Source: Acidobacteriota bacterium
GTDB lineage: Bacteria; Acidobacteriota; Vicinamibacteria; Vicinamibacterales; JAKQTR01
Length of the DNA: 64,000 nt
Direction: 5' to 3'
Assembly (NCBI GenBank): GCA_040752275.1
Contig: JBFMFH010000101.1
Coordinates: forward strand, 62,813-126,812
In this document: piece by piece, positions 3,392 to 60,022 of the stretch
Position numbering within the stretch: the stretch's first letter is position 1
Layout of the letters: every line of letters starts with the position of its first letter
Notes under the pieces: generated by a model
Database searches by the model: none
Told to the model about the DNA's origin: nothing
The model's input: only the letters and a program-made list of their open reading frames with translations
Position numbers and translations under genes: made by a program

Positions 3392-6300
3392 GTGCTCATG
3401 AGGACGCATCGTCTGTCTGCGTTGGCCGCGGCCCTGGCTGCAGGGTTCGCGCTGGCCCTAGCCGCCCACGGCCCGGGTGAGGTCGCGGCCCAGGGGCCAT
3501 CGAGTTCCCCTGCCGCCGCGCTGAAGAGTCTCCAGTGGCGCAGCATCGGTCCCACGGCCCAGACCGGACGCGTCTCGGCGGTCGCGGGCATCCCCGGAGA
3601 CGTCAACACGTGGTATGTCGGTGCCGCTGCGGGCGGTGTCTTCAAGACGACCAACAACGGGGTGTCGTGGACGGCGCTGTTTGACGAACAGCCAAACGTG
3701 TCGATCGGCGACATCGCGATTGCACCCTCGAATCCCAATGTCATCTACGTCGGGACGGGCGAAGGGAATCCCCGGAACAGTGCGTCGTTCGGCGAGGGTG
3801 TCTTCAAGTCGATCGATGCAGGTGGACACTGGACGCACGTCGGTCTGAAGGACGCCGACAAGATCGCACGTCTGCGCATCGACCCGCGAGACCCCGATGT
3901 CGTCTATGCGTGCGTGCTCGGCGGCGCCTGGGGCCCGACCGAAGAACGAGGCCTGTTCAAAACGACCGACGGCGGCAAGAGCTGGCACAAGATCCTCTAC
4001 AGGAACGAGCGTACGGGATGCTCGGATGTCGACATCGATCCGACCAACGGCAACATCGTGTACGCCGGCCTGTACACCTTTCGCCGCTGGGCCTGGTACT
4101 TCGACTCGGGCGGCGGCGACACGGCCGTCTACAAGTCTTCGGACGGCGGAGGCAGCTGGACGAGGCTGTCGGGCCCGGAGGCCGATCGCGGGCTCCCGAA
4201 GGGGCCGATGGACCGCATCGGGATCGGCGTCGCGCGAAGCAATCCGAACGTTGTCTACGTGATCAGCGAGACGACGAGCGAGGGGGAGATCTGGCGGACG
4301 GACGATGCCGGCGCGACATGGAGGATGGTCAACAAGGACCCCAACATCAACTTCCGGCCGTTCTACTACTCGGACATCCGCGTCGATCCCCAGCATCCCA
4401 ACACCGTCTATTCCCTTTCGGGCCCGCTGCTGAAGTCGGAGGACGGCGGCCGGACGTTCACCCGGATCGGCAACTCCACGCACGGCGACCATCAGGCCAT
4501 GTGGATCGACCCCACGAACTCGAATCGGATTCTGAGCGGTGACGACGGCGGGTTCCAGGTGTCGTACGACGCGGGCGCAACCTTCGACGTGCTGAACAAC
4601 ATTCCTTTCACCCAGTTCTACAACGTCGACTATGACCTGCGAATCCCGTACCACCTCTGCGGCGGTTTGCAGGACAATGGTACCTGGTGCGGTCCCAGCC
4701 AGACGCCTGGGGCCCAAGGAACGCCCAAGAGCGAGTGGCAGAATGTCGGCGGCGGCGATGGCTTCTTCGCGGTGCCGGACCTGACGGACCCGGACCTGGT
4801 CTACAACAACCTCCAGGGTGGCGTCATCAGCCTGACCAACCGCAAGACCAGGGCGTCCTGGGGCGTGAATCCCTACCCCGGCGGCATCGGGTCGAGCGGG
4901 CAGTGGATGGCCCCGCAGAAGTACCGCTTCAACTGGAACGCGCCGATCGTGCTGTCGCCGCAAGATCCGATGACGGTCTACTACGGCGGCAACGTCCTGT
5001 TCAGGACGACCGATCGCGGCCATTCGTGGGAGGTCATCAGCCCGGACCTCACGACCAACGACAAGGAGAAGCAGAAGTCATCCGGCGGCCAGATCGTGAC
5101 CGACAATACCGCCGCCGAGTTCCATTGCACGATCATCAGCATCGGTCCGTCGCCCCTCGACGCCAACCTCATCTGGGTGGGTACCGACGACGGGAACGTG
5201 CAAGTGACGCGTGACGGGGGGAAGAGCTGGACCAGCATTTTCGCGCACGCACCGGGCCTGAAGCCCAGCGCGTGGATCAACAAAGTCGAGCCGTCTCGTT
5301 TCGACAAGGCCACCGCCTACGTATCAGCCAGCCACTGGCAGGACGGCGACTACACGCCGTACTTCTACAGGACGACCGACTACGGCGGGACCTGGACCAA
5401 GATCACCGACGGCCTGCTGCCGAAGGGCTGGTCCCACGTCATCCGCGAGGATCCGAAGAACCGGGACCTGCTCTACGCGGGCACGGAGAACGGCCTGTAT
5501 GCCTCGTGGGACCGGGGTGAGAACTGGGTCTCGATCCGCAACAACATGCCGGCGGCGCCCGTCCGGGACATCAAGATCCACCCCCGCGACAACGACATCA
5601 TCGTGGCGACCCATGGCCGGGGCCTCTACATCCTCGACGATGCAGCGCCCTTCCAGCAGGTGACCGCGGCGGTGAAATCCGAGGCCTACCTGTTCCCGGT
5701 TCGGCCGGCCATCCGGTGGGCCGGCGGCTCGGGGATGTTCCGGCTTAATGAACGCGACTGGATTGCTCCCAACCCGCCAGCGGGCGCCTACATCAACCTG
5801 TATCTGAGGAACGCGCCGGAACGGCCCCTCACCATCACGATTGCCGACAAGGCCGGGAGGACCGTGCGTAGCCTGCGCAATCAGCGCGCCCGAGCTGGTG
5901 TCAACCGCTTCGTCTGGGATCTGAGATGGGACAACCCGGCGGCCCGGGAGGATCCGGCCATGGCGGACATCCCGGTTGCGGTTCGTGCACGGTTCGGGTT
6001 CGGGAGCTTCGGACCCTCCGTCCTGCCAGGCGAGTACGTGGTCAAGGTGGCCGCCGGCGGGCGGGAACTGACCTCTCCCGTCACCGTCATGCTCGAACCC
6101 GGCGTCACGGTGCCGCAGTCCGACTTGCAGGCGCAGATCGACGCGGCCTTCGCGATGCTCGATGTCCAGAAGCGCCTCAATGCTGTCATCGACCGTATCG
6201 ACAGCCTGAGGGAGCAGTTGACGGCGCTCGACGGCTCGCTCGGGAAGCAGGCGCCACCGCCGGCCGTCCGTGGCCTGGTGAAGCAGACCATGACCAGGCT

Positions 6301-6559
6301 GAAGACGTGGCGAGACGAAGAGCTGGTGCGCCCGCTGTCGGGTCTTGGATACCGGCAGTATCCCAGACTGCGCGAGAATGTGCAGTCAGTGGCTGGCTAC
6401 GTCAATCGGGGCTTCAAAGCACCGAACGAAGGCGAGAAGCTGCGCATGAAGGAACTGGTTGACGAGACAGCCGCGGCCGAGAGGACGCTCGCGGCCATCG
6501 AAGGCGGCGAGATCGCGGCGATCAACGCAGCGATGAAGGGGGAGCCGCGGATACGGTGA
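3392..6559 (+). CDS. secreted BNR/Asp-box repeat protein (sortilin/VPS10-like, annotated glycosyl-hydrolase-like in relatives)
   Basis: Signal peptide 'LSALAAALAAGFALALAA'. More than 10 Asp-box motifs of the form SxDxGxxW ('TTDGGKSW','SSDGGGSW','TRDGGKSW','TTDYGGTW'). Confidence 0.8.
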   Translation: MLMRTHRLSALAAALAAGFALALAAHGPGEVAAQGPSSSPAAALKSLQWRSIGPTAQTGRVSAVAGIPGDVNTWYVGAAAGGVFKTTNNGVSWTALFDEQPNVSIGDIAIAPSNPNVIYVGTGEGNPRNSASFGEGVFKSIDAGGHWTHVGLKDADKIARLRIDPRDPDVVYACVLGGAWGPTEERGLFKTTDGGKSWHKILYRNERTGCSDVDIDPTNGNIVYAGLYTFRRWAWYFDSGGGDTAVYKSSDGGGSWTRLSGPEADRGLPKGPMDRIGIGVARSNPNVVYVISETTSEGEIWRTDDAGATWRMVNKDPNINFRPFYYSDIRVDPQHPNTVYSLSGPLLKSEDGGRTFTRIGNSTHGDHQAMWIDPTNSNRILSGDDGGFQVSYDAGATFDVLNNIPFTQFYNVDYDLRIPYHLCGGLQDNGTWCGPSQTPGAQGTPKSEWQNVGGGDGFFAVPDLTDPDLVYNNLQGGVISLTNRKTRASWGVNPYPGGIGSSGQWMAPQKYRFNWNAPIVLSPQDPMTVYYGGNVLFRTTDRGHSWEVISPDLTTNDKEKQKSSGGQIVTDNTAAEFHCTIISIGPSPLDANLIWVGTDDGNVQVTRDGGKSWTSIFAHAPGLKPSAWINKVEPSRFDKATAYVSASHWQDGDYTPYFYRTTDYGGTWTKITDGLLPKGWSHVIREDPKNRDLLYAGTENGLYASWDRGENWVSIRNNMPAAPVRDIKIHPRDNDIIVATHGRGLYILDDAAPFQQVTAAVKSEAYLFPVRPAIRWAGGSGMFRLNERDWIAPNPPAGAYINLYLRNAPERPLTITIADKAGRTVRSLRNQRARAGVNRFVWDLRWDNPAAREDPAMADIPVAVRARFGFGSFGPSVLPGEYVVKVAAGGRELTSPVTVMLEPGVTVPQSDLQAQIDAAFAMLDVQKRLNAVIDRIDSLREQLTALDGSLGKQAPPPAVRGLVKQTMTRLKTWRDEELVRPLSGLGYRQYPRLRENVQSVAGYVNRGFKAPNEGEKLRMKELVDETAAAERTLAAIEGGEIAAINAAMKGEPRIR

Positions 6560-6570
6560 CACCAGGAGCC

Positions 6571-6658
6571 GGGATTCGGGATTCGGGAGTCCAAAGTCGC
6601 AGCTCGGACCAGGTCCTGGCCCGGCGCAAGACCCGAATCCCGAATCCCGAATCCCGAG
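6571..6658. repeat. inverted pair of tandem heptamer arrays (GGGATTC x2 + GGGAGTC; CCCGAAT x3), a candidate bidirectional hairpin
   Basis: Read directly: 6571-6591 GGGATTCGGGATTCGGGAGTC and 6632-6658 CCCGAATCCCGAATCCCGAATCCCGAG are reverse complements. They lie between convergent stops at 6559 and 6672. Confidence 0.9.
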
Positions 6659-6671
6659 TCCAGATCCTCGT

Positions 6672-8003
6672 TCAGCGCGAGCGTCTCTTGCGTAGCAGCC
6701 CCTTGAGCACGTCCGTCAGGTCAGGCTTGCCGATGACCTGCAGCTCGTAGCGCACGCGCACCGTTGGCTTCCTGATCGTAATGATTCGATTCAGGTCAAT
6801 CGGCGTGCCGATGATGACCGTGTCGCACGGGGTACGGTTGATGGTCTTCTCGAGGTCCTTGATCTGGTGATTCCCGTACCCCATCGCAGGCAAGAGGGTG
6901 CCGATGCCCGGGTACTTCGCGAAGGTCTCTCTGATTGTGCCGACCGTGTAGGGCCGGGGATCGACGATCTCGGCGGCGTTGAACTTGCCGGCCGCGACGA
7001 TGCCGGCCCCGAACTTCATCTCGCCGTGTGTCAGCGTCGGGCCGTCCTCGACGACGAGAACCCGTCTTCCGGTGATGCGCTCGGGATGGTCGACGAGGAT
7101 GGGTGAGGCGCCCTCGATGATCTGCGCCTTCGTGTTGACCAGCCGGATGTTCGCGCGCAGCGCGTTGATGTTGCCGATGTCCGCCGTGTCCACCTTGTTG
7201 ATGAGCACGACATCGGCCATCCGCAGGTTCGTACCCCCGGGGTAGTAGGTCAGCTCGTTCCCCACGCGCAACGGGTCTGCGACGACGACGTGAATGTCCG
7301 GGCGGTAGAACGGCGTGTCGTTGTTGCCCCCGTCCCAGAGGATGACATCGGCTTCGGCCTGCGCCTGGGCCAGGATGTCGCCGTAGTCGACCCCGGCGTA
7401 GACAATCGTGCCGCTGACGATGTGCGGCTCGTACTCCTCGATCTCTTCGATCGTGCAGTCGTGCTTCTTGAGGTCGGCAATCGAGGCGAAGCGCTGGACA
7501 CGCTGTCTGTCGAGGTTGCCGTACGGCATCGGGTGGCGGATGGCGGCCACGCTGAGGCCGGCGCCGCGCAGCATCCCCGCGATGCGTCTGGTCGTCTGGC
7601 TCTTGCCGGATCCGGTTCGCACTGCGCAGACGGCCACGACGGGCTTCCGGCTCTTGAGCATGGTTGCAGCCGGGCTGAGAAGCTTGAAGTGCGCGCCCGC
7701 CGCATTGACGACCGAGCCGCGATCCAGGACGTAGGTGTACGACACGTCGCTGTACGAGAAGACGACCTCGTCGATCTCCTCCGTGCGGATGATCGACTCG
7801 AGGTCTTCCTCGGCGAGGATCGGGATGCCCTTCGGGTACAGCTTGCCGGCCAGCGATGCTGGATACCGCCGGTCCTCGATATTCGGGATCTGGGTGGCCG
7901 TGAACGCCACGACCTGGTACCGCGGATCGTCGCGATAGACGACGTTGAAGTTGTGGAAATCGCGCCCTGCGGCGCCCATGATCAGGGTTCGGGTGGGTTT
8001 CAT
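6672..8003 (-). CDS. COG2403 / cyclic-2,3-diphosphoglycerate-synthetase-like P-loop protein (candidate arginine-citrulline ATP-coupled enzyme)
   Basis: 443 aa. N-terminus 'IMGAAGRDFHNFN', Walker A 'RTGSGKSQT'. The start is 6 nt after the rocD stop, in an operon with OTC and carbamate kinase. Confidence 0.7.
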   Translation of the reverse strand: MKPTRTLIMGAAGRDFHNFNVVYRDDPRYQVVAFTATQIPNIEDRRYPASLAGKLYPKGIPILAEEDLESIIRTEEIDEVVFSYSDVSYTYVLDRGSVVNAAGAHFKLLSPAATMLKSRKPVVAVCAVRTGSGKSQTTRRIAGMLRGAGLSVAAIRHPMPYGNLDRQRVQRFASIADLKKHDCTIEEIEEYEPHIVSGTIVYAGVDYGDILAQAQAEADVILWDGGNNDTPFYRPDIHVVVADPLRVGNELTYYPGGTNLRMADVVLINKVDTADIGNINALRANIRLVNTKAQIIEGASPILVDHPERITGRRVLVVEDGPTLTHGEMKFGAGIVAAGKFNAAEIVDPRPYTVGTIRETFAKYPGIGTLLPAMGYGNHQIKDLEKTINRTPCDTVIIGTPIDLNRIITIRKPTVRVRYELQVIGKPDLTDVLKGLLRKRRSR

Positions 8004-9232: not shown

Positions 9233-9257
9233 GGGGATTCGGGGTTCGGGATTCGGG
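9233..9257 (+). repeat. tandem heptamer array (GGGATTC, GGGGTTC, GGGATTC, GGG)
   Basis: Read directly in the 176-nt spacer between the ATCase-like gene and rocD. It contains four G3+ tracts. Confidence 0.85.
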
Positions 9258-9391: not shown

Positions 9392-10306
9392 TCATTCCTC
9401 GTCCCACAGGAGTGTCAGCAGGGCCATCCGGATGAACAGGCCGTTCTGGGCCTGCTTGAAGTAGAGTGCCCGCGGGTCATCGTCCACGGCCTTGTCGATC
9501 TCGACCGTGCGCGGCAGGGGGTGGAGGATCATCGCGTCGGGCTTCATCCGTCTGAGCAGGCGCGTGTCGATCGTGTAGCGCCCGAGCGAGGTCCGGTCGG
9601 CAACGCGATCCGGACGGATCCGTGTCTGATAGATGACATCCACGCCGCCGACAATCGACTCCACGTCGGTATGGAGGTCGTACCATACGTCGTGCTCGTC
9701 GAGGTGATCCAGGATGTCCTGCTGCATCTGGATTTCGGGCGGGCTGACGAAGTGGATCTTCACGCGCTCGAACTTGCTCAGCAGGTACGCGAGGGATCGG
9801 GCGGTCCGGCCCTGATCCAGCTCGCCGACGATGGCGATGGTGAGGCCGTCCATCGTGCGGCGTTCCCGGTAGATTGTGTAGAGATCGAGCAACGCCTGGG
9901 TGGGGTGCTGGCCGCCGCCGCCATCGCCGGCGTTGATGACCGGCACCGCCGAGACCCGCGCGGCGCGCTGTGCGCCACCGGGCTCGTTGTGTCGCAGCAC
10001 GATCACATCCGAGTAGCCCGCCATGATCCGGATCGTGTCCTCGAGGCGCTCCTCGGCGACCTCCGAGGAGAAGATGCGGGCGTGCTCCGTCGAGAGCACG
10101 CGCCCGCCGAGGCGGTACATGGCTGCCTCGAAGGAGAAGCGCGTGCGGGTCGACGGCTCATAGAAGAGCGACGCCATCACCCGGCCGGCATAGTCACGCG
10201 TGCCGCCGCGGGCCACGATCCGCTCCATCTGCCCGGCGCGATCGAACAGCTCCAACAGGAGCGGCACGGTGAACTGCTGCGATTCGAGGACGTGGGTCAG
10301 TTTCAT
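9392..10306 (-). CDS. pyrB: aspartate-carbamoyltransferase-type transcarbamylase catalytic chain
   Basis: '[11 protein letters not shown]', 'HPTQALLD', 'HPLPR', and no SMG loop. At 304 aa this is the ATCase pattern, unlike the OTC pattern of the neighbouring gene. Confidence 0.75.
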
Positions 10307-10317
10307 AGGAACTTGCC

Positions 10318-10476
10318 AGAAGACAGGAGACAGAATACAGAAGACAGAATCACGTCGAGAGCCGCTGGACGCGGCTCCTTCTCTCTGGGGTCATGCCTCA
10401 CCCGCTGACCGCGGCGCATGCCTGTCAAGTAGATGCTCCCCATTCTGTCTTCTGTCTCCTGTATTCTGTCTTCTCT
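10318..10476. repeat. inverted pair of purine-type heptamer arrays (AGAAGAC/AGGAGAC/AGAATAC x5 versus their complements) flanking a GC hairpin
   Basis: 10318-10352 reads AGAAGAC AGGAGAC AGAATAC AGAAGAC AGAATCA. 10442-10476 reads ATTCTGT CTTCTGT CTCCTGT ATTCTGT CTTCTCT. An internal hairpin GAGCCGC-tggac-GCGGCTC lies at 10359-10377. Confidence 0.85.
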
Positions 10477-10488
10477 TCCCCTCGTGCG

Positions 10489-11430
10489 TCAGTCCATCAC
10501 AATGTGCGTTCCCGCCTCGCCGCGCACCGCGTCCAGCAGTTGCTCGTACGACGTGATGATCACCTCGCGGCCGCCGGCGCGCAGAAACCGCAACGCCGAG
10601 TCGATCTTCGGCCCCATGTTCCCCGGAGGGAACTGGCCCTCGTCGTAGTGCCGCTGCATCTCGGAGACGGTTGCCCGACCGATGGGCCGCTGGCTGGGCT
10701 TCTTGAAGTCCAGATAGACGCGGCTCGCATCGGTCGAGATGACGAACAGATCCGCTCGCAGTCTCGACCCGAGCAGGGCCGAGGCCCGGTCCTTGTCGAT
10801 GACGGCCTCCACACCGCGCAGCCCGCGGCCGGTTCGAACCACCGGTACACCGCCGCCGCCGGCGGCGATGACGATGGCGCCGGCGGCGATGAGCTGCCTG
10901 ATGACCTCCTCCTCGACGATCTCGAGCGGCTCGGGCGAGGGCACCACCCGCCGATACCCCCGGGCTGCGTCCTCGACGACGTTCCAGCCCAGTTGGCTGC
11001 GCCGGACCGCCGCCTCTCGGGCGGAGTAGAACGGGCCGACTGGCTTGGTCGGCCGATGCATGGCCGGATCGTCCGGTGACACGACCACCTGGGTGAGCAT
11101 CGTCACGACCGGCGTGTTCAGGCCGGCGAGCCCCAGTTCATGGCGCAGCGACTGCTGCAGGAGATACCCGATCTCACCCTGCGTCGAGGCCACGCAGACG
11201 TCGAGCGGATGACTGTAGACCTGATCGGCTGCCCGCTCGGAGCGCAACAGCGCCGCACCGACCTGGGGGCCGTTGCCGTGAGTCACCACCACGCGGTAGC
11301 CGAGACGCACGATCTGGACAATCGACTCGGCCGTCCGCGCCGTGTTGGCCCGCTGCTCGGGAATCGTGCCCTTCTCACCCGCGCGGATGAGCGAGTTGCC
11401 GCCGACGGCGACCAGTGCAGTGCGGCCCAC
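10489..11430 (-). CDS. arcC: carbamate kinase
   Basis: 'ALVAVGGNSL' and 'VVTHGNGPQVG'. 313 aa, starting 7 nt downstream of the OTC stop. Confidence 0.9.
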   Translation of the reverse strand: MGRTALVAVGGNSLIRAGEKGTIPEQRANTARTAESIVQIVRLGYRVVVTHGNGPQVGAALLRSERAADQVYSHPLDVCVASTQGEIGYLLQQSLRHELGLAGLNTPVVTMLTQVVVSPDDPAMHRPTKPVGPFYSAREAAVRRSQLGWNVVEDAARGYRRVVPSPEPLEIVEEEVIRQLIAAGAIVIAAGGGGVPVVRTGRGLRGVEAVIDKDRASALLGSRLRADLFVISTDASRVYLDFKKPSQRPIGRATVSEMQRHYDEGQFPPGNMGPKIDSALRFLRAGGREVIITSYEQLLDAVRGEAGTHIVMD

Positions 11431-12504: not shown

Positions 12505-12521
12505 CCGAATCCCGAATCCCG
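12505..12521 (-). repeat. short heptamer array (CCGAAT CCCGAAT CCCG, which is GGGATTC on the minus strand)
   Basis: Read directly in the divergent gap between the OTC start and the menF start. Confidence 0.7.
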
Positions 12522-12542
12522 TACAATGGACCGAACGCCGCC

Positions 12543-13607
12543 GTGTCGAGCCCCACCTGTTTCGGATTCGTGCAGACGGAGCCGGCCTCATTCCTGTGTC
12601 TGGAGGGGCGGCTGCGGCCTGCCACACACGGCGATCGCGACACGCCCGCGCTGTACGCCCCGGCCTTCGATGAGTCGCCCAACGGCGCTTGGCTCCGCGC
12701 TGAAGACGCGCGTCTGGAAGAGGTGCCTCACGCGACCTGGCTCGTCCGGTTTCCCCCGCCGGCGGATTCGCCGCCGCCCGTTGCCTGGGGCGAGCCCGAC
12801 GAAGAGCGGTTCCGCCACGCCTTCGCTCGCCTCCGCGATCTCATCGCTCGTGGCGTCCTGCAGAAGGGGGTCCCGGCCAGCCGGATCGTCGCCGCGATCG
12901 AGCCAGGCGCGGCCGAGACGCTGTTCGGGCACCTCCTCCGACGCGTGCCGGAACAGCCGGCGGCGCTCATGGCCTACGGGTTGTGCCGGCGCGATCCGAC
13001 GACGGGGCGTCTCGTCGAGTTCATGCTGGGCGCGACCCCCGAGGTCCTCTTCGACCTCCACGACCAGCATTGCCTCCGGACCATGGCCGTAGCCGGCACC
13101 CGGTGGTCGTCGATCGGACCGGATGTGCTGCAATCGAGCGCCAAGGACCGTGACGAGCACCAGTTCGTCGTCTACGATCTGATCAATCGCCTGGCCGCAT
13201 GGGGCAGCGCGTCCGTGTCGGGAACCATCGTCCGGTCATTCGGTGACTTGGAACACCTCGTCGCCGAGATCAGCCTCGAGGCGAGGCGGCCGCTGGTGTT
13301 CGAGGAAGTCGCGCGTGAGCTGCATCCGACTCCCGCCCTGGGTGTCTACCCGAGAAATCAGGCCGGCCTGGCGTGGCTGTCTGACCTCGACCCCCGCGGT
13401 GAGCGGCACAGGTACGGTGCACCCTTCGGCATCAGCGTGCCGGCCAGACCCAGCCGGTGCGTCGTGGCCATCCGCAACGTGCAGTACCGGCGGGGGGAGT
13501 TGAGCATCTGGGCGGGCTGCGGCGTGGTGGCGCAGAGCCGGTACGAGGAGGAGTGGCAGGAGGTGCTCGACAAGATGCAGACCGCGAGGGTGATGTGGGG
13601 CCTGTAG
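12543..13607 (+). CDS. menF: isochorismate synthase
   Basis: Chorismate-binding C-terminus 'ELHPTPALGVYP', 'GAPFGI', 'IWAGCGVV'. The start is uncertain (GTG 12543 or 12570). The long ORF from 12048 overlaps the OTC gene. Confidence 0.75.
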   Translation: MSSPTCFGFVQTEPASFLCLEGRLRPATHGDRDTPALYAPAFDESPNGAWLRAEDARLEEVPHATWLVRFPPPADSPPPVAWGEPDEERFRHAFARLRDLIARGVLQKGVPASRIVAAIEPGAAETLFGHLLRRVPEQPAALMAYGLCRRDPTTGRLVEFMLGATPEVLFDLHDQHCLRTMAVAGTRWSSIGPDVLQSSAKDRDEHQFVVYDLINRLAAWGSASVSGTIVRSFGDLEHLVAEISLEARRPLVFEEVARELHPTPALGVYPRNQAGLAWLSDLDPRGERHRYGAPFGISVPARPSRCVVAIRNVQYRRGELSIWAGCGVVAQSRYEEEWQEVLDKMQTARVMWGL

Positions 13608-18986: not shown

Positions 18987-19387
18987 CGTTCAAGCCTGGC
19001 GCGAATGGTGGCCGGAATCGGTGTCTTCTGGAACCGGCCATCGACGAAGACATGAACGGTGCGGGTCTCGGCGCACAGGTGTGGCGATGGATCGCCGGTG
19101 TCGAGGAAGCGCGTGACCAGGTCGAACGACGACTCCGAGAGACGGCCCACTCCGACTTCGGCGACAAACGGCCGACCCGGCCGCAACGGGCGGTGAAAGG
19201 TCGCCTCCGCGTGCTTGATCGGGACCAGCCAGTCTGGCGCGGCGAAGTACTCGTCCCAGGTCACGCCCAGGGCGGAGACGACGAAATCCTCGTAGACCTC
19301 GTGCGCCAGTTGGAGGATCCGCCCGAAGAAGAGGATCCCGCGGAAGTCAGCTTCGTGGAACCGAACTGACACGGGGCATGTGAACAT
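18959..19387 (-). CDS. hotdog-fold acyl-CoA thioesterase (4HBT/YbgC type), candidate DHNA-CoA thioesterase
   Basis: 'VSVRFHEADFRGILFFGR'. It converges on menE and overlaps its 3' end by 28 nt. I chose ATG 19387 as the start because the longer ORF to 19414 enters a palindromic repeat. Confidence 0.65.
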   Translation of the reverse strand: MFTCPVSVRFHEADFRGILFFGRILQLAHEVYEDFVVSALGVTWDEYFAAPDWLVPIKHAEATFHRPLRPGRPFVAEVGVGRLSESSFDLVTRFLDTGDPSPHLCAETRTVHVFVDGRFQKTPIPATIRARLERHMIADPRQ

Positions 19388-19411
19388 CGAGAGGCTCCGT
19401 GCGCCGAAGAA

Positions 19412-19476
19412 CACTCCCGCTCTCGAGCGGGATTGTCCGCATGGTGGAATCGCACTCCCGCTCTAGAGCGGGAGTG
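19412..19476. repeat. two tandem copies of a palindromic element (CACTCCCGCTCT-GAGCGGGA..)
   Basis: 19453-19476 CACTCCCGCTCTAGAGCGGGAGTG is a perfect 24-nt palindrome. 19412-19435 CACTCCCGCTCTCGAGCGGGATTG is a near copy 41 nt away. Confidence 0.85.
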
Positions 19477-19479
19477 AGG

Positions 19480-20748
19480 TCACGGCGTCGGCTCACCGGA
19501 CGGTTCGCGCCGTCGTCCCGGCCGGCGTCGTCGCCGCCGCCGGCGCTTCGGGCGGACCTCGTCCTCGGGAGCCGCCGCCTGCTGCATCCAGTAGGCGACC
19601 ATCTCGGGAGCCTGCCCATGAATCTCGAGCCAGGTCAGGGCATCGCGAAAGGCCGCGCGCTCGGTTAACATCCAGCGCGCCCGGCCAGACCGGCTCGGTT
19701 CGAGCAGCCGGCGCTGGAGTACCAGCACCTGGTGAACTCGCTCCACCTCGCGCCGCGCGAGGGGCAGCACGCCGAGCGAGAGCCCGCTCTGCCGGCCGTC
19801 GCCCACCCAGGCGGGCCACCCCTGGGGCGAGAAGCCCAGCGGGGCAATGAGACTGCCGAGGAGGATCGCGTTCGACAGCGTGTCTGGAACCTGCTCGAAG
19901 CGGCGGCGGTAGGCGTCCAACCGGGACAGGGAGGCCAGCACGCTGTCACCGACGCCCTCGTGCAGCACGTGGCTCAGCGGCTCCAGCAGGCCGACACGCT
20001 TCAACTCGCGGAATGCCCGTTCTGCGAAGCCGGACCGGAGGATCTTGTAGTACTCATCGGCGAGCCGGGCCGGCGCCGCCCTGGTCAACTCGCCGCGGTG
20101 GCGGCCGATGGCCTCGATAACGGGCGGGTCGATGGCGAGGTCCATGCGCGCGGCCAGGGTAATGGCGCGTTGCATGCGGACGGGGTCTTCGCGGAACCGC
20201 ACACCGGGGTCTCCGATGCATCTGACCACGCGGAGTCTCAGATCCTCGAGCCCCCCGACGTAGTCGATGATCGAAAACGTCGCGATGTCGTAGAAGAGGG
20301 CGTTGATCGTAAAGTCGCGCCGAAAGGCGTCCTCCTCGGCCGTTCCAAAGGTGTTGTCCCGGTGAATCAGGTGGTCCTTGTGTCCGGCTCCCGACGGCTC
20401 AGTGGTCCCGGCGCCGCGGACGTGTTCTTTCGCCTCTTCTTCGCTCACCTGCCGCCTAAACGTGGCCACCTCGATGACCTTGGCTCCGAACTTGACATGG
20501 GCCAACCGGAAGCGGCGGCCGACGACGTAGCAGTTCCGAAAGAGCTTCTTGACCTGATAGGGGTGCGCGTCGGTGCCGATATCGAAGTCTTTCGGCCGGC
20601 GGTCGAGCAGCAGGTCCCGGACGCTGCCGCCGACCAGGTACGCGGCATACCTGGCGTCCTTCAGGCGATAGAGGACCTTGAGTGCGTCTGGATCAATGTG
20701 TCGGCGCGACAGCGTGTGCTGATCGCGCGGGACCACGAGGGGCGGCAT
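19480..20748 (-). CDS. pcnB: poly(A) polymerase I / tRNA nucleotidyltransferase family
   Basis: 'LVGGSVRDLLLDRRPKDFDI' and 'RRFRLAHV', with an Arg-rich C-terminal tail. Confidence 0.8.
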   Translation of the reverse strand: MPPLVVPRDQHTLSRRHIDPDALKVLYRLKDARYAAYLVGGSVRDLLLDRRPKDFDIGTDAHPYQVKKLFRNCYVVGRRFRLAHVKFGAKVIEVATFRRQVSEEEAKEHVRGAGTTEPSGAGHKDHLIHRDNTFGTAEEDAFRRDFTINALFYDIATFSIIDYVGGLEDLRLRVVRCIGDPGVRFREDPVRMQRAITLAARMDLAIDPPVIEAIGRHRGELTRAAPARLADEYYKILRSGFAERAFRELKRVGLLEPLSHVLHEGVGDSVLASLSRLDAYRRRFEQVPDTLSNAILLGSLIAPLGFSPQGWPAWVGDGRQSGLSLGVLPLARREVERVHQVLVLQRRLLEPSRSGRARWMLTERAAFRDALTWLEIHGQAPEMVAYWMQQAAAPEDEVRPKRRRRRRRRPGRRREPSGEPTP

Positions 20749-20753
20749 GTCTG

Positions 20754-20817
20754 GGGATTATATCTTCCGGGATTCGGGATTCGGGATTCGGGATTCGGGA
20801 AGCGGGATTCGGGAAGC
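20754..20817 (+). repeat. tandem heptamer array, 7 contiguous units (GGGATTC x4, GGGAAGC, GGGATTC, GGGAAGC) plus an upstream GGGATTA
   Basis: Read directly. The contiguous run is 20769-20817 and begins 4 nt after the polA stop codon. Confidence 0.95.
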
Positions 20818-20821
20818 CAGG

Positions 20822-23509
20822 CTACTTCGCGTCCTTCCAGTTCTCGCCGATGCCCACGTCCACGGTGAGAGGGACGCCGAGGGGAACCGCCTTCTCCATC
20901 AGGTGCCGCACCAGCGCGGCCACCTCGTCCGACTCTTCCCGCCTCGCCTCGAACAGCAGTTCGTCATGCACCGTGAGGATCATCCGCGGCCGCAGACCGC
21001 CGGCTCGGGCCGGCCTGGCCGAGAGAGCCTCGTGGACGTCGATCATGGCCCGCTTGAGGATGTCGGCGGCGGTGCCCTGGATGGGCATGTTGACGGCGAC
21101 GCGCTCAGCCGCAGAGCGGACCTGTCCGTTCCGGCTGGTGATCTCGGGCACAGGCCGTCGTCGTCCGAACATGGTCTTCACGACTCCACTCGCCCGGGCC
21201 TCCGCAATCGTCCGGTCGATGAAGACCCGCACGCCGGGAAAGCCCGAGAAGTACGCGTCGATGAACGCCTGCGCCGCCTGCTGGGTCACGCCTATGTCCC
21301 TGGCGAGCGTAAATGCGGTCTTCCCATAGAGCAGGGCGTAATTCACCATCTTGGCCGTGCTGCGCCTCTCCTGCCGGCTCCGGCCGCTGTCGGCGCCGAA
21401 AATCGCGTCGGCGGTCCGGTCGTGAATGTCCTCGCCCCGAGCAAAGGCGTCGATGAGCGCCCGATCGCCGGACAGGTGTGCCAGCACCCTGAGCTCGATC
21501 TGCGAATAGTCCGCCGAGATGAGCACGCAGCCCGGCTCGGCGACGAAGGCCCGGCGGATCTCGCGGCCGAGGTCGGTGCGAACGGGGATGTTCTGCAGAT
21601 TGGGCTCGCTGCTGCTCAAACGTCCGGTTGCGGCAACGGCCTGATTGAAGCGCGTGTGGACGCGCCCGGTGGCGGGGTTGATCAGCTGGGGCAGGGCATC
21701 GACGTAGGTGCCCTTCAGCTTCTGCAGACTCCGCCATTCCAGGATGAGCCGCGGCAGCTCGTGACCGAGGGCCAGTTCTTCCAGCACCTCGACGGCCGTC
21801 GACGCCGCCCGCGTGGTGCCGGTCTTCTTGAGGACGGGCAGCTTCAGCTTCTCGAACAGAATCTCGGCCAGCTGCTTCGGCGATCCGATGTTGAAGGACT
21901 CGCCGGCGAGCGCGAAGATCCGGTCGCTTGCCTGCTGCATCTCGGCGTCGAGCCTGCGCGACAGCGATTCGAGAACGGTGCGCTCGACGCGAACGCCCGC
22001 CATCTCGATGGCCATCAGCACCGGGACGAGCGGCCACTCCAGCGTCCGATAGACCTCCTCGAGGTGCTCCTCGGCCAGCTTCTCACGAAGGATCGGCGCG
22101 AGCTGGCGGGGCAGATCGGCCCGTTCTCCCGCGAATGCCAGGGTGGCGGTCGCCGGGAGATCCGCGGCGCAGGTGGCCCTGGCGCCCTTGCCGTAGACGT
22201 GCTCCTCGGCGACGAGCCTGTAGCCGAGATGCTCGAGGCTCAGCACTTCCAGCGCGTGCGGCGCCCTGTTCGAGTCGATCAGGTAACTCGCCAGCATGGT
22301 ATCGAACCCCGGACCCGCGACGTCGACGCCGTGGCGGGCCAGTACGACGCCGTCGTACTTCACGTCGTGACCGATCTTCTCCACGCTCGGATCTGCGGCG
22401 AGCCCGGCCAGCCTGGCGAGCAGGTCGCGCTCGTTCAGGTTCCCAACGGAGTCCAAGGCCCGGTGGGCGACTGGTGCGTAGCGCACGCGGCGCTCGGATG
22501 TCGACAAGGCGATACCGACTATGCCGGCCTGCATGGGTGAGGGCGCGTCCCCAATCACTCTGATACCGACGCACCCGGTGGCGCGGGCTTCGGCAATGAC
22601 GCCGTCCAGCTCCTCCAGCGACTCGACGACGGCGTAATCAGCCGCCACGCTGTCTGCAGCCGGTGCGTACTCGTTCATCAGCGATCGGAACCCGAGCTGC
22701 GAAAACAGATCGAAGCACTCCTGGGTCTTCGGCCCCCGGTACCTCAGCGTCTCGAATTCGACGTCGATCGGGACATCCGTGCGAATGGTGACCAGTTCGC
22801 GGCTGCTGCGCGCTGCGCCGGCGTTGGCGAGCAGCGCCTCCCGGTAGCGCTTCTGCTGAACCGAGGCCGCGCCCTCGAGCAGGGCATCGAGAGACCCGAA
22901 CTGAGCCATCAGCTCACGGGCGCCCTTCTCGCCGATGCCCGGGACGCCCTTGACGTTGTCCACGGCATCACCCGTGAGCGCGAGCACGTCGATGACCTTG
23001 TCCGGGGCGACGCCGAACTTCTCGACGACGCCGGCCTGGTCGTACCAGGTCCCCTCGTCGCGAGGGTTGAACACCCTGATGCGGCCGCCCACCATCTGGA
23101 AGAAGTCCTTGTCGCCGGTCACGATGGCGACGTCGAAGCCCTTCTCGGCGCCTCTGACTGCCAACGTCCCGATCACATCGTCGGCCTCGAAGCCCCGCAG
23201 CGTCATGACTGGCACGCCCATGGCGGTGCAAGCGCGGTGCACCAGCGCCACCTGCTGGACCAGGTCATCAGGCATCGGGGCGCGGTTGGCCTTGTAGTCG
23301 TCAGCCAGCGCATCACGAAAGGTCGGCCCCTCCACGTCGAAGGCCGCGCCGATGTAGTCGGGCCGCTGGTCGGCCAGCAGCTTGCGCAGCATGGTCACAA
23401 AGCCGTAGATGGCGTTTGTCGGCCGCCCGTCGGGAGCGCTGAGTCCACGGATGGCATGGAAGGCCCGGTACATCTGGGAGTTGCCGTCGATGAGGAACAG
23501 GCTAGGCAC
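20822..23509 (-). CDS. polA: DNA polymerase I
   Basis: 5'-nuclease N-terminus 'LIDGNSQMYRAFHA' and polymerase motif 'DYSQIELRVLAH'. 895 aa with a GTG start. Confidence 0.95.
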   Translation of the reverse strand: MPSLFLIDGNSQMYRAFHAIRGLSAPDGRPTNAIYGFVTMLRKLLADQRPDYIGAAFDVEGPTFRDALADDYKANRAPMPDDLVQQVALVHRACTAMGVPVMTLRGFEADDVIGTLAVRGAEKGFDVAIVTGDKDFFQMVGGRIRVFNPRDEGTWYDQAGVVEKFGVAPDKVIDVLALTGDAVDNVKGVPGIGEKGARELMAQFGSLDALLEGAASVQQKRYREALLANAGAARSSRELVTIRTDVPIDVEFETLRYRGPKTQECFDLFSQLGFRSLMNEYAPAADSVAADYAVVESLEELDGVIAEARATGCVGIRVIGDAPSPMQAGIVGIALSTSERRVRYAPVAHRALDSVGNLNERDLLARLAGLAADPSVEKIGHDVKYDGVVLARHGVDVAGPGFDTMLASYLIDSNRAPHALEVLSLEHLGYRLVAEEHVYGKGARATCAADLPATATLAFAGERADLPRQLAPILREKLAEEHLEEVYRTLEWPLVPVLMAIEMAGVRVERTVLESLSRRLDAEMQQASDRIFALAGESFNIGSPKQLAEILFEKLKLPVLKKTGTTRAASTAVEVLEELALGHELPRLILEWRSLQKLKGTYVDALPQLINPATGRVHTRFNQAVAATGRLSSSEPNLQNIPVRTDLGREIRRAFVAEPGCVLISADYSQIELRVLAHLSGDRALIDAFARGEDIHDRTADAIFGADSGRSRQERRSTAKMVNYALLYGKTAFTLARDIGVTQQAAQAFIDAYFSGFPGVRVFIDRTIAEARASGVVKTMFGRRRPVPEITSRNGQVRSAAERVAVNMPIQGTAADILKRAMIDVHEALSARPARAGGLRPRMILTVHDELLFEARREESDEVAALVRHLMEKAVPLGVPLTVDVGIGENWKDAK

Positions 23510-23512
23510 GCG

Positions 23513-23552
23513 GGGATTCTATCCGGGATCCGGGATCGGGGATCCGGGATCC
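23513..23552 (+). repeat. heptamer array variant (GGGATTC, then GGGATCC GGGATCG GGGATCC GGGATCC)
   Basis: Read directly inside the 59-bp divergent gap between polA (23509) and the next gene (23569). Confidence 0.9.
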
Positions 23553-23568
23553 GTTATGATTCCCTGCT

Positions 23569-24333
23569 GTGCCGTTTGGTGGGAGGGTCTTCCTGGCGCG
23601 CGCAAGACTGATCGGGCTGGTGGCTGCACTGGTCCTCGGGGCTGCCTCCTGCACAGGTAACGGACAGGGCCTGATCAAGCACTACGAATACGAGGAGGAG
23701 ATCTACCTGTCGCTGGACGGGAGCGCCACCATCTACGTCAATGCATCGGTGCCGGCTCTTGTGTACCTGAGGGGGCTTGATCTCGATCCGCGTCCGAACG
23801 CCCGGCTGGACCGTGCGCGGGTGCGCAACATGTACACGACTCCCGTGACACGTGTGGCACGGGTGAGCACATGGCGCCGGTTCGGACGGCGCTTCGTCCA
23901 GATCCGCGTGGCCGTCGACGACATCCGGCGCCTTGGCGACGCCGGACCATTCTCGTGGTCCACCTACCGGTTCGAGCTGCAGGACGATCAAGTGGTCTAC
24001 CGGCAAGCCATCGGTGGTCCTGAGGGAAGGCCGGTGGGGACGGTCGGGTGGACCGGACGCGAACTCGTGGCCGTGCGGCTTCACCTGCCCGCCCGCATTC
24101 ACTACCACAACGCGGGTGCCGACAACCTGAAGCGCGGCAACATCCTGGTCTGGGAACAGTTGTTGAGCGACCGGCAAGCGGGCGTGCCGCTCGAGATGGA
24201 AGTCCGGATGGCGCAGGCGTCGATCCTCTATTCGACGCTCCTTCTGTTTGCGGCCAGCGGTGCATTGGCCCTGGTCGTGCTGGCGTTCCTCATCTGGTGG
24301 GTGATGAGGCGGGGACGGACGGCGGCGGTCTGA
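23569..24333 (+). CDS. hypothetical exported protein with an N-terminal signal/lipobox-like segment and a C-terminal TM anchor
   Basis: 'LVAALVLGAASC' at the N-terminus and 'ILYSTLLLFAASGALALVVLAFLIWWV' at the C-terminus. I recognised no family. Confidence 0.6.
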   Translation: MPFGGRVFLARARLIGLVAALVLGAASCTGNGQGLIKHYEYEEEIYLSLDGSATIYVNASVPALVYLRGLDLDPRPNARLDRARVRNMYTTPVTRVARVSTWRRFGRRFVQIRVAVDDIRRLGDAGPFSWSTYRFELQDDQVVYRQAIGGPEGRPVGTVGWTGRELVAVRLHLPARIHYHNAGADNLKRGNILVWEQLLSDRQAGVPLEMEVRMAQASILYSTLLLFAASGALALVVLAFLIWWVMRRGRTAAV

Positions 24334-24420
24334 TGTGATACGAGGGGGCGCAGCCACAACAATTCGCGGCCGTGCAGAAGCTCGGAGCAGGGGCCGATAC
24401 GCAGAAGGGGGCCACCCTGC

Positions 24421-55133: not shown

Positions 55134-55252
55134 TGCCGGACCCCGTGCTGGACCGCTCTCACCCTTCCGCGAGGCGAAGAGTCGGCCTCGGCCTCATCTC
55201 CATGGACCGGCGGGATGCGAGCGGAGTTACACTTACCGTCTTGGACCGAGGT

Positions 55253-55292
55253 CCCAATCCCGCTCGTGTCCGGGATTGTCTCAGCGGGATTG
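55253..55292 (+). repeat. degenerate GGGATT-type element: hairpin CAATCCCG/CGGGATTG plus direct repeat CGGGATTGTC x2
   Basis: Read directly in the spacer upstream of the GNAT gene. The two CGGGATTGTC copies are 14 nt apart. Confidence 0.5.
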
Positions 55293-55307
55293 TCGTGGGG
55301 AGGGGCC

Positions 55308-55910: not shown

Positions 55911-56644
55911 CCCGGTCCGAGCAGCATCGTCAGAATGCCCAAGGCCACGACGAGAACCTGGCCGACGCTGTTGCGCTCGAACGGCCCTCGGTGCAGGCTC
56001 GGGATCAAATCGGACATGGCCACGTAGAGGAAGCTCGCGGCCGCGAGAGGGAGGAAGTACGGAAGGAACCGCGGGGTCAGCGTGAACGCCAGCACGGCGA
56101 AGAGCACGCCCAGAATGGCCGAGACTCCGGAGAAGATGTTGAGCCACAGCGCCCGCCTGCGTGAGTAGCCCGCGCCGAGCAGAATGGCGAAGTCGCCCAC
56201 CTCCTGGGGAATCTCGTGTGCGGCGACGGCGACCGCCGTCGTCACGCCGAGGGGAACCGAAACGGCCGTTGCCGCGGCGATGACCGCTCCGTCGACGAAG
56301 TTGTGAAACGCGTCACCGATCAGAATGAGTGCCGCCGCCGACTTGTGCAGCTCGCACTGATCCGCATGACAGTGCCGCCAGAGGACGAGCTTCTCGAGAA
56401 GGAAGAACAAGATGATACCCGCAAGCAGTGTCCCGAAGACCGCGGGCGCCGGCAGCGACTCGAGAGACTCGGGCAATAGGTGCAGTAAAGCGACGCCGAG
56501 CAGGGCGCCGACCGCATAGCTGATCAGCCAGGGCAGCAGCTTCACACGGACGGTGTCTCTGAAGAGCAGGAGGGTCGATGCCAGGATCAGCCCGCCGATG
56601 CTGCCGACGATGGACAGTCCGATGGCTACGGGAAGGGCGGACAC
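55907..56644 (-). CDS. ZIP-family divalent metal transporter (ZupT-like)
   Basis: 'HEIPQEVGDFAILL' in a multi-TM protein with a GTG start. Confidence 0.85.
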   Translation of the reverse strand: MSALPVAIGLSIVGSIGGLILASTLLLFRDTVRVKLLPWLISYAVGALLGVALLHLLPESLESLPAPAVFGTLLAGIILFFLLEKLVLWRHCHADQCELHKSAAALILIGDAFHNFVDGAVIAAATAVSVPLGVTTAVAVAAHEIPQEVGDFAILLGAGYSRRRALWLNIFSGVSAILGVLFAVLAFTLTPRFLPYFLPLAAASFLYVAMSDLIPSLHRGPFERNSVGQVLVVALGILTMLLGPG

Positions 56645-56659
56645 GGAAGGGATCGTAGC

Positions 56660-56701
<42 letters not shown>

Positions 56702-59806: not shown

Positions 59807-60022
59807 GCTGCCGGCCGAAGGCGCAAGAACCCTGCCAGAAGCGGACACTCCCGCTGCTCTCTTCTTTTCGGTCGATCCCTGCGCGAACTTGCGCATTCTG
59901 GCCCGCAGCCGCGACAATATCCGGGCCCGCGCCGCCGTTCGGTGACACCTGCAGAGGACTCTGCGGTGTCTACTCCTTTGGGCCCGCCGACTCAAGTTGG
60001 GGGGCATTGAGAGGCATGGTCC

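Follow-up and report, generated by a model that had tools for sequence, protein, structure and literature searches.

Tandem repeats built specifically of heptamers have long been remarked on as a peculiarity of certain large genomes of free-living bacteria. The STRR heptamers of this kind are reportedly restricted to heterocystous cyanobacteria. Rehm et al. (2015, PLoS One; PMC4692102) described GGGAATC-type repeats at 186 and 183 loci of Xanthomonas campestris and X. axonopodis, respectively, along with GGGGA(C/T)T heptamers in Nostoc and a mention of STRR heptamers for Calothrix PCC 7601; a passage of the same paper dates the notice of heptamer over-representation to 2007 or before. By their account, 89-93% of the repeats are intergenic, 70-75 convergent inverted pairs are present, the coding strand carries the G-rich sequence within 50 nt after stop codons and the non-coding strand carries it in the last 50 nt before start codons, and the repeats are under-represented between divergent genes, with length and sequence varying between close species. 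The neighbors are housekeeping genes, most copies are transcribed, and G-quadruplexes (G4) and i-motifs are formed in vitro. Rehm et al. cite the idea that the 7-nt period corresponds to the DNA segment held in the polymerase active site, and explicitly assign no function, which "remains to be elucidated". Heptamers of Nostoc sit near promoters and start codons (bioRxiv 10.1101/2022.06.06.494920), and TAACTGA repeats of marine Beggiatoaceae are reported to be abundant, intergenic, present in 2-6 copies in scattered lineages, and proposed to be regulatory (MacGregor 2015, PMC4679880). Here, we analyze arrays of the heptamer GGGATTC and its relatives in a 64,000-nt stretch of a soil Vicinamibacterales (Acidobacteriota) genome (contig JBFMFH010000101.1, positions 62,813 to 126,812; GC content 65-70% throughout), referred to below as the window, with an array located between polA and pcnB as the focal case.

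The focal array is a solitary one, with seven contiguous units (GGGATTC four times, GGGAAGC, GGGATTC, GGGAAGC, by direct reading) at positions 20769-20817 and the G-rich sequence on the plus strand; Tandem Repeats Finder (TRF) gave it a score of 80, with 6.7 copies of period 7. An earlier note on this DNA had described these seven units as lying 4 nt after the polA stop and some 20 nt before pcnB, which the sequence confirms. Its start of the array at 20754 has to be moved to 20769, since GGGATTATATCTTCC does not belong to the repeat but corresponds, in reverse complement, to TATAAT, the -10 box of pcnB, and the following CCCC. A search of the window with GGGATTCGGGATTC, i.e., (GGGATTC)2, allowing at most two mismatches, revealed 21 matches versus a mean of 0.64 in shuffled sequences (none of 100 shuffles reached 21). 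A GGGATTC-type unit is present at seven separate sites of the window, and head-to-tail heptamers with tracts of three or more G are found there in two units or more. The earlier note knew of no description of such a motif in this kind of genome and offered three ideas about it (REP-like hairpins, quadruplexes, and slippage-driven contingency loci). Rehm et al. (PMC4692102) describe the same class and discuss all three. The repeat class and the functional ideas are thus already known, and the host lineage is new. A second new point is that Vicinamibacterales keep the period and the pairing into hairpins with units of arbitrary sequence.

The prevalence of period 7 was determined with one array-detection rule for all periods from 4 to 12. 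The window gene map was obtained with a codon-usage caller (93% coding), and its main genes were confirmed by NCBIfam and Pfam. Ten period-7 arrays were detected in the window, eight of them in the ca. 3.3 kb (about 5%) of non-coding DNA. Periods 4, 5, 8, 10, 11, and 12 gave 0-1 arrays each, while periods 6 and 9 gave five and one, with a single non-coding array between them. The two coding period-7 arrays are a weak, unrelated match at 56823 and the array at 62383-62414, in the 3' tail of an open reading frame (ORF; 61924-62421); the view that the arrays lie in intergenic DNA, with one spilling into the tail of a coding sequence, therefore holds. For comparison, 80 metagenome loci and several assembly loci were fetched through PcnB, independently of the repeats. 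The window PcnB is 100% identical to a protein of an Acidobacteriota metagenome-assembled genome; its next relatives are at most 85% identical, and several of them are named Vicinamibacterales. Once near-duplicates had been removed, a set of 79 loci was left, the window among them, with a total of 512 kb, of which a simple codon-usage caller put 8.8% in non-coding DNA. There were 50 non-coding and 12 coding period-7 arrays in this set, or 11.1 versus 0.26 per 10 kb, a ca. 43-fold difference, and every other period from 4 to 12 was represented by 0-7 non-coding arrays. The enrichment in intergenic DNA that the earlier note proposed to check in related genomes is thus present.

The position of the arrays depends on gap type. 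An array was found in 16 of 54 gaps between convergent genes (30%; 4.5 arrays per kb), in 11 of 118 co-directional gaps (9%; 1.15 per kb), and in five of 80 divergent gaps (6%; 0.66 per kb). Strand polarity was also evident. Of the arrays located up to 30 nt after a stop codon, 24 had more G than C on the sense strand and six more C than G (two-sided binomial p of about 0.001), and within 30 nt before a start codon C prevailed in 11 arrays and G in three (p of about 0.06), these p values being indicative only, as orthologous sites are not independent. Nine inverted pairs, with arms 7-93 nt apart, account for 18 of the 50 arrays; this is an undercount, because some partner arms, e.g., in loci L199 and L156 of the set, fall below the threshold.

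Folding separates the paired arrays from the solitary ones. In the window, the pair at 6571-6591 and 6632-6658 folds with -62.1 kcal/mol (z -6.0; 6557-6675), and the pair at 10318-10352 and 10442-10476 with -80.7 kcal/mol (z -4.5; 10300-10492, minus strand), while the focal and other solitary arrays have z values from -1.0 to +1.1, so the hairpin idea of the earlier note stands for the pairs only. The one solitary array that folds better than shuffles has a palindromic GGATCC-containing unit. No T-run follows either paired-array hairpin in the window, and by eye most hairpins downstream of pcnB in relatives have no U-tract; a terminator consensus scan of 19300-24400 gave weak matches only, one of which is the GGATCC palindrome at 23540. 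Downstream of pcnB, lineages carry either an ordinary hairpin or a long one with arms made of unrelated heptamer units (GAATTAA, GGAATTT, GAACTTA, CTGGTTG, TTTTCAG/AACTGAC). In the window, the corresponding gap (19415-19479, from the pcnB stop to the start of a thioesterase gene) holds two near-identical small CCCGCTC-TNGA-GAGCGGG palindromes, TCCCGCTC-TCGA-GAGCGGGA and CTCCCGCTC-TAGA-GAGCGGGAG, and in L116 and L119 the matching gap holds an inverted pair of heptamer arrays. In L176, ca. 199 nt downstream of pcnB and between convergent genes, a unit of about 60-70 nt is repeated three times in tandem, GGACGCGGAGGCGCGGAGGGG(G)ATCTCACGCCA(C/A)GCCGCCATGACGCCAAT(T/C)TC, a longer period at a place where other lineages carry heptamer hairpins.

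Unit sequences are diverse. The 50 non-coding arrays have 40 different consensus units, for example GAAGTCT, GGCTACT, GAATTAA, GCAAAAT, GGGGCTT, and GGTATCA, and GGGATTC is the commonest unit of the set solely owing to the window. Units that are purine-rich in positions 1-4 and end in C, as the earlier note had it, are characteristic of the window and not of the relatives, where GCAAAAT, GAATTAA, and GGTTTCT occur. Units containing GGG or CCC make up 34%, versus 28% expected for random heptamers of the same composition, and only 10 of the 50 arrays have four or more G3 or C3 tracts. The unit number is three in 12 arrays, four in 18, five in 17, six in two, and seven in one, given that the threshold removes arrays of fewer than three. 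From the number of different units and the tract statistics, we conclude that the conserved property is the 7-nt period, and not the sequence or quadruplex potential.

A scan of the whole collection for (GGGATTC)4 revealed at least 115 stretches. By a tally of record titles among the matches listed, 69 are from Lysobacterales (Xanthomonas, Lysobacter, Rhodanobacter, Luteimonas, Stenotrophomonas, and others), 18 from Acidobacteriota, mostly Vicinamibacterales, three from cyanobacteria, and 25 from scattered others. Of 125 arrays in the Lysobacterales loci among these matches, 92 have the unit GGGATTC, 13 GGGGATT, and four GGGAATC; nearly all their units are of the GGG type, whereas those of Vicinamibacterales are heterogeneous. 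GGGATTC is also the unit of a variable-number tandem repeat (VNTR) locus, beside other 7-nt units, in the multiple-locus VNTR analysis (MLVA) scheme for Xanthomonas vasicola. A scan of viral contigs found (GGGATTC)4 in five stretches. One Acidobacteriota metagenome-assembled genome (MAG; CAVZRV010000035.1, locus L051) has both (GGGAATC)n and (GGGATTC)n within 8 kb (623-713, 2529-2590, 6917-6937), so the two units coexist in one acidobacterial genome; AAATCGT, GGAACCA, and CGGTCTC arrays are present in the same stretch.

Arrays also change between close relatives. L195 and L197 have flanks that are 99-100% identical, and one arm of their pair differs by exactly one unit (26 versus 19 nt). Between L178 and L181, the length of a (GCTACTG)n block differs by 61-68 nt, and differences of 21 nt distinguish L164 and L186 from L194. 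Many arrays have no counterpart at the orthologous site even when the flanks are 75-90% identical; the array of L183 is missing from nine orthologous loci. Many contigs start within a few bases of a heptamer array (L119:1-30, L092:1-116, L032:6-117, L038:6-61), and arrays are near position 1 of the contig in L007, L011, L067, L070, and L077 as well. These cases suggest that heptamer arrays break short-read assemblies and so are under-counted in MAGs.

The focal array lies between two minus-strand genes, polA (DNA polymerase I; 20822-23509; NCBIfam PRK05755, E=0, 1059 bits) and pcnB (poly(A) polymerase; 19480-20748, ATG at 20748; TIGR01942, score above its cut-off). It is separated by 4 nt (20818-20821) from the polA stop and by 20 nt from the pcnB ATG. 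Since both neighbors are on the minus strand, the sense RNA of the array would be (GAAUCCC)n, of which 43% is C and 14% G. The fold of the RNA of 20740-20830 read from the minus strand, at -13.2 kcal/mol, is not better than those of shuffled sequences (z +0.31). At the orthologous site of L116, whose PcnB is 80% identical, the order is polA TAG-T-TATAAT-CCCCTCTC-ATG, with no array; the array is missing from L130 as well. In L119 (PcnB 85% identical), (GGTCCCC)4 precedes the same TATAATCCCC box, on a contig that starts inside the array, and L122 has seven degenerate GNNTCCC units upstream of pcnB. Because relatives show absent, GGTCCCC, and GNNTCCC states at this site, the focal array is probably a recent lineage-specific insertion or expansion, and comparison of the aligned sites indicates that arrays arose or turned over repeatedly between polA and pcnB. 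Seeding of the GAATCCC unit by slippage of the -10 box and discriminator (TAGAATCCC, TATAATCCCC) was considered and rejected as unsupported: GGAAGA separates the box from the array, the unit found at this place in L119 is another one, and in L116 the box is present but no array.

The pcnB -10 box (TATAAT, 20757-20762, minus strand) is 8 nt upstream of the ATG at 20748, and the focal array ends 6 nt upstream of it. In ca. 70 pcnB-anchored relatives, a box of the form tttGgTAcAAT is found 7-9 nt before the start codon in otherwise diverged sequence, which leaves no doubt about the box, and in L124, L129-L131, and L174 the extended -10 box overlaps or directly follows the polA stop codon. The pcnB mRNA thus appears to be leaderless or near-leaderless across the lineage (window 20746-20762, minus strand; L120-L199). 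A scan of 19300-24400 with a consensus σ70 promoter revealed no promoter match and no -35 box, so the assignment of -10 boxes is based on their conservation in relatives. Five window arrays upstream of gene starts end 0-6 nt from a -10-like hexamer, which in four of the five cases is 6-8 nt from the start. These are TATAAT-N8-ATG of pcnB and TAGAAT-N6-GTG of polA (box 23516-23521, GTG 23509), TACGAT-N7-GTG of a gene for a ZIP transporter (box 56652-56657, GTG 56644), all on the minus strand, and TATGAT-N8-GTG of the plus-strand gene starting at 23569 (box 23555-23560). In the fifth case, TACAAT (12522-12527) lies 15 nt before the GTG at 12543 of a gene for a chorismate-binding enzyme. The genes whose -10 box is this close to the start therefore look leaderless, which would place the arrays in promoter-upstream DNA and not in the mRNA of the downstream gene. 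Relatives are expected to express pcnB from the same box without an array, and the focal array is therefore unlikely to be an essential part of the promoter.

A TANNNT hexamer 6-9 nt before the start was found in seven of 53 called window genes, which are candidate leaderless genes; four of the seven have a heptamer array immediately upstream, and several boxes are followed by CCC(C). Such sites include 23507-23571, 56642-56657, 12522-12545, the start of 797-3229, and the start at 29885. A motif, GCGGGATTGTC / CCGGGATTGTC, occurs twice in the gap 55134-55307 (at 55255-55300) and once at 19430 (19428-19440); its reverse complement, GACAATCCCG, resembles another -10 box followed by CCC.

All the other arrays cited in the earlier note are present where it had placed them, by direct reading and by TRF, which called period-7 arrays at 6570, 6632, 9234, 12505, 20768, 23521, and 62379. 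The left arm of the first inverted pair (6571-6591, plus strand; GGGATTC, GGGATTC, GGGAGTC) begins 11 nt after the stop of the plus-strand gene 3422-6559, and the right arm (6632-6658, G-rich on the minus strand) is 13 nt after the stop of the convergent minus-strand gene 6672-8003, so that either transcript reaches its own G-rich arm first. In the second pair, a purine-rich arm (10318-10352, plus strand; AGAAGAC, AGGAGAC, AGAATAC, and similar units, pyrimidine-rich in the sense RNA) is located 11 nt upstream of the ATG (10306) of a minus-strand carbamoyltransferase gene, and its partner (10442-10476, minus strand, purine-rich in the sense RNA) is 12 nt after the carbamate kinase stop (10489). 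The solitary array at 9233-9257 (plus strand; GGGGATTC GGGGTTC GGGATTC GGG; fold z +0.32) is C-rich in the sense direction and is 17 nt upstream of the minus-strand ornithine aminotransferase start (ATG 9215). The array at 12505-12521 (minus strand) has only 2.4 units, reads CCGAATCCCGAATCCCG on the plus strand, directly adjoins TACAAT, and has a fold z of +1.08. A GGGATCC variant (23525-23552, plus strand) fills the space between the divergent -10-like boxes TAGAAT and TATGAT, and its self-complementary unit (GGATCC) gives a fold z of -5.0. AGAAGAC followed by four to five AGGAGTC units (56660-56701, plus strand) is immediately upstream of TACGAT of the ZIP-family transporter gene, is pyrimidine-rich in the sense direction, and has a fold z of -1.0. 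The array at 62383-62414 (minus strand; (CCCGAAT)n on the plus strand; fold z +0.03) falls within the last 39 nt of the ORF 61924-62421 and 42 nt upstream of the start (62457) of an ABC-ATPase gene. The units are contiguous 7-mers without spacers, unlike a clustered regularly interspaced short palindromic repeat (CRISPR) array with direct repeats of ca. 25-40 nt and unique spacers, and nothing is common to the flanks (30 nt) of the seven GGG-type arrays, which agrees with the absence of insertion-sequence hallmarks claimed earlier. Apart from the heptamers, a C-rich imperfect repeat of period 6/12 (CCCGTC/TCCCCGACACCC) is present at 59075-59116 within the minus-strand ORF 58745-60007; the codon usage of this ORF is atypical, and the gene caller left most of it unassigned, creating a 1038-nt "gap".

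The explanation that we favor, and consider moderately probable, is that the arrays are heptanucleotide simple-sequence repeats of the class that comprises the cyanobacterial STRR and the Xanthomonas GGGAATC repeats: born by slippage, purged from genes, REP- or terminator-like when paired, and tolerated when solitary. Membership in this class is much more secure than any function. Replication slippage favoring 7-nt steps would generate the arrays; those arising in genes would be purged, because 7 is not a multiple of 3 and the reading frame would shift, and those at the edges of transcription units would persist. Paired arrays may act like REP elements or U-less hairpin terminators, ending transcripts or protecting their 3' ends. 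Their stem should tolerate the loss of a unit from one arm, as in L195 and L197, since the loss merely shifts the pairing register. Solitary arrays would be lineage-specific expansions, here in the sole free DNA between the polA stop and the -10 box of leaderless pcnB. As relatives lack it, the focal array is presumably dispensable for pcnB expression; at most it may modulate or insulate, for example by keeping read-through from polA at a distance from the promoter of pcnB, the template strand being the one with the G-tracts.

Several points weigh against this explanation. Every functional step in it is, for the host organism, an inference. Purely neutral slippage accounts neither for the strand polarity nor for the presence of one G-rich unit at seven sites here, as in Lysobacterales, when relatives have arbitrary units. 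The enrichment in convergent gaps could reflect tolerance, there being no promoters to disturb, and not function, and the hairpins usually have no U-tract and hence are not canonical intrinsic terminators. In addition, the gene calls in relatives come from a simple codon-usage caller, and the counts overstate the statistical weight, as orthologous sites are not independent. A bolder version, which we regard as unlikely, is that in Vicinamibacterales the period and not the sequence is maintained, and that hairpins with private heptamer arms are a selected, register-tolerant 3'-end architecture in a high-GC lineage without U-tract terminators, made by heptad-specific slippage or by arm-to-arm copying; the dominance of GGGATTC in both Lysobacterales and Acidobacteriota, which are unrelated soil lineages, would then be due to a shared trans-acting factor or structural selection and not to chance.

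The polarity and the dominance of a single G-rich unit, which slippage leaves unexplained, keep alive three rivals, of which the first assumes that arrays with at least four GGG tracts form G4 (and an i-motif on the C strand) as DNA or RNA and in this way stop transcription, make it pause, or open it at the boundaries of genes. The focal array is upstream of the pcnB promoter, and transcription reading through from polA would meet its G-tracts on the template strand. The window has 12 potential quadruplex sequences, of which five are heptamer arrays and six are in the ca. 5% of DNA that is non-coding; the window genome, like Lysobacterales, favors GGG-type units, and Rehm et al. 2015 (PMC4692102) observed K+-dependent G4 by circular dichroism for GGGAATC-type oligonucleotides and i-motif signals for the C strand, as well as a preference for four units. 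For the five window arrays, which have four or more GGG tracts and 4-nt loops, quadruplex formation is accordingly conceivable on sequence grounds, as the earlier note had it. Across the 79 loci, in contrast, no sharp preference for four units is apparent among arrays of three or more, and the proportion of GGG- or CCC-containing units and the 10 of 50 arrays with sufficient tracts led us to reject G4 as the common denominator. Arbitrary units with a persisting period and pairing argue against quadruplexes as a general principle, the AGGAGTC and AGAAGAC arrays of the window cannot form G4 yet occupy the same positions, and a duplex hairpin would be preferred by paired arrays. We consider this rival improbable. 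A platform for a trans-acting factor that reads the 7-nt register (on RNA, ribosomal protein S1 or a CsrA-like protein; on DNA, a nucleoid protein; or a ring-shaped or multi-domain protein that binds either) and exerts global post-transcriptional or promoter control is somewhat less probable still. The strict period, variable sequence, and strand polarity do point to a selected feature, and one unit dominates in two unrelated phyla. A similar proposal was made for the TAACTGA repeats (PMC4679880), and a partner was proposed for the Nostoc heptamers, whose deletion altered reporter regulation (bioRxiv 10.1101/2022.06.06.494920). Forty units in 50 arrays nevertheless speak against sequence-specific recognition, and arrays are often absent from orthologous sites. 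We attach slightly less weight again to the possibility that solitary arrays with a C-rich sense strand are unstructured Rho loading (rut) sites after the upstream gene, or ribosome standby sites ahead of the downstream start. The focal array starts 4 nt after the polA stop, and its (GAAUCCC)n RNA folds no better than shuffles, as do the arrays at 9233, 12505, and 62383. After stops, the G-rich orientation is the commoner one (24 versus 6), which is the opposite of what a rut site needs and caused us to reject this reading in its general form. In addition, four window arrays precede the point where transcription of the next gene probably starts and so would be outside its mRNA, and there are relatives without the focal array.

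Two further explanations fare worse. If the arrays were contingency (phase-variation) loci, gain or loss of units would alter promoter geometry or the reading frame and switch expression. In support, near-identical strains of relatives differ by whole units, repeats of this kind vary so much in Xanthomonas that one is used as an MLVA marker, several arrays touch promoters, and one is in the tail of a coding sequence. This part of the earlier note's contingency idea, the change in unit number, is thus borne out in relatives. The switching part looks doubtful: the neighbors are housekeeping genes (polA, pcnB, and genes for a chorismate-binding enzyme, ornithine aminotransferase, and carbamoyltransferases). 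Where a promoter has its -10 box close to the start, as four do, the arrays are upstream of the box, with no -35 box, and hence no identifiable spacing to alter, in the region scanned (19300-24400). As the array is periodic, a change of units restores the same upstream sequence, and convergent gaps, in which arrays are most frequent, offer nothing to switch. Rehm et al. 2015 (PMC4692102) came to the same negative conclusion, and we regard phase variation as very unlikely. A mobile, REPIN- or MITE-like family spread by a transposase is hardly credible. Inverted pairs 7-93 nt apart do resemble REPIN doublets, and the same unit is present at seven window sites. The seven GGG-type arrays, however, are not accompanied by target duplications, terminal motifs, or flanks that are conserved, the pairs in relatives have a private unit each, the repeats are very rare in viral contigs (the five stretches mentioned above), and the Rfam search was negative. 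It was the lack of flank conservation that led us to reject a mobile element.

Acidobacteriota (Vicinamibacterales) become the third well-separated lineage with such repeats, beside cyanobacteria and Xanthomonadales/Lysobacterales, and their dozens of unrelated units separate the 7-nt period, pairing, and polarity from any particular sequence or G4 potential. The arrays would be suitable as VNTR markers for strain typing in this abundant, poorly cultured soil group. They reveal no new kind of system. The literature search found no paper that prints GGGATTCGGGATTC or its complement and none on heptamer arrays in Acidobacteriota, and the search of the whole window against Rfam at gathering thresholds gave no match. 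A match to an already annotated repeat family, which the earlier note had named as a reason to abandon its proposal, exists in part: the arrays correspond to the class described by Rehm et al. and to no Rfam entry.

Compared with known systems, the arrays are closest to the class of Rehm et al. They are likewise tandem heptamers with G3-4 tracts, dispersed and intergenic, rare in divergent gaps, and they show the same non-coding bias, frequent convergent inverted pairs, and positional and strand rule. They also share housekeeping neighbors and a variation of length and sequence among close relatives. The differences are the host phylum; the unit, GGGATTC, which is neither a rotation nor the reverse complement of GGGAATC; the arbitrary units of Vicinamibacterales (40 kinds), mostly without G-tracts; the apparent lack of a sharp four-unit preference among arrays of three or more units; and the gap type, convergent gaps being most enriched here, whereas co-directional gaps hold most repeats in Xanthomonas. 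The search rule used for Xanthomonas (at least one GGGAATC; heterogeneous arrays (GGGANTN)n) would not retrieve these arrays, although GGGATTC fits GGGANTN; the window contains one GGGAATC-GGGATTC dimer only, inside a coding sequence at 57161. That rule is a search criterion and not a biological definition. The STRR of Calothrix and Nostoc are also tandem intergenic heptamers with several unit sequences per genome; given the other phylum and other units, the resemblance is one of kind, and the arrays do not belong to the STRR. REP, BIME, and REPIN elements of enterobacteria and pseudomonads are short extragenic repeats at gene ends, often arranged as inverted doublets that form mRNA hairpins and are thought to stabilize 3' ends or punctuate operons. 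The arrays share with them the extragenic position at gene ends and the frequent hairpin-forming doublets. REP and REPIN, however, are conserved imperfect palindromes of ca. 20-40 nt mobilized by RAYT transposases, whereas the tandem heptamers studied here have private pair units, have only the heptamers in common, and differ in their flanks, which sets them outside that family. Like the phase-variable simple-sequence repeats of Haemophilus and Neisseria, the arrays are prone to slippage and vary in unit number between strains. In those two genera, the genomes are small, the units measure 1-5 nt, and the repeats are found within ORFs or in promoter spacers, the genes being ones for surface or host-interaction functions, in contrast to units of 7 nt, housekeeping neighbors, and mostly 3' ends here. 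Finally, the Beggiatoaceae TAACTGA repeats are also reported as abundant intergenic heptamer direct repeats in phylogenetically scattered lineages; they have one fixed unit, are almost always direct (with a single indirect repeat reported), and are mostly upstream of starts, while in the arrays analyzed here inverted pairs at 3' ends are prominent.

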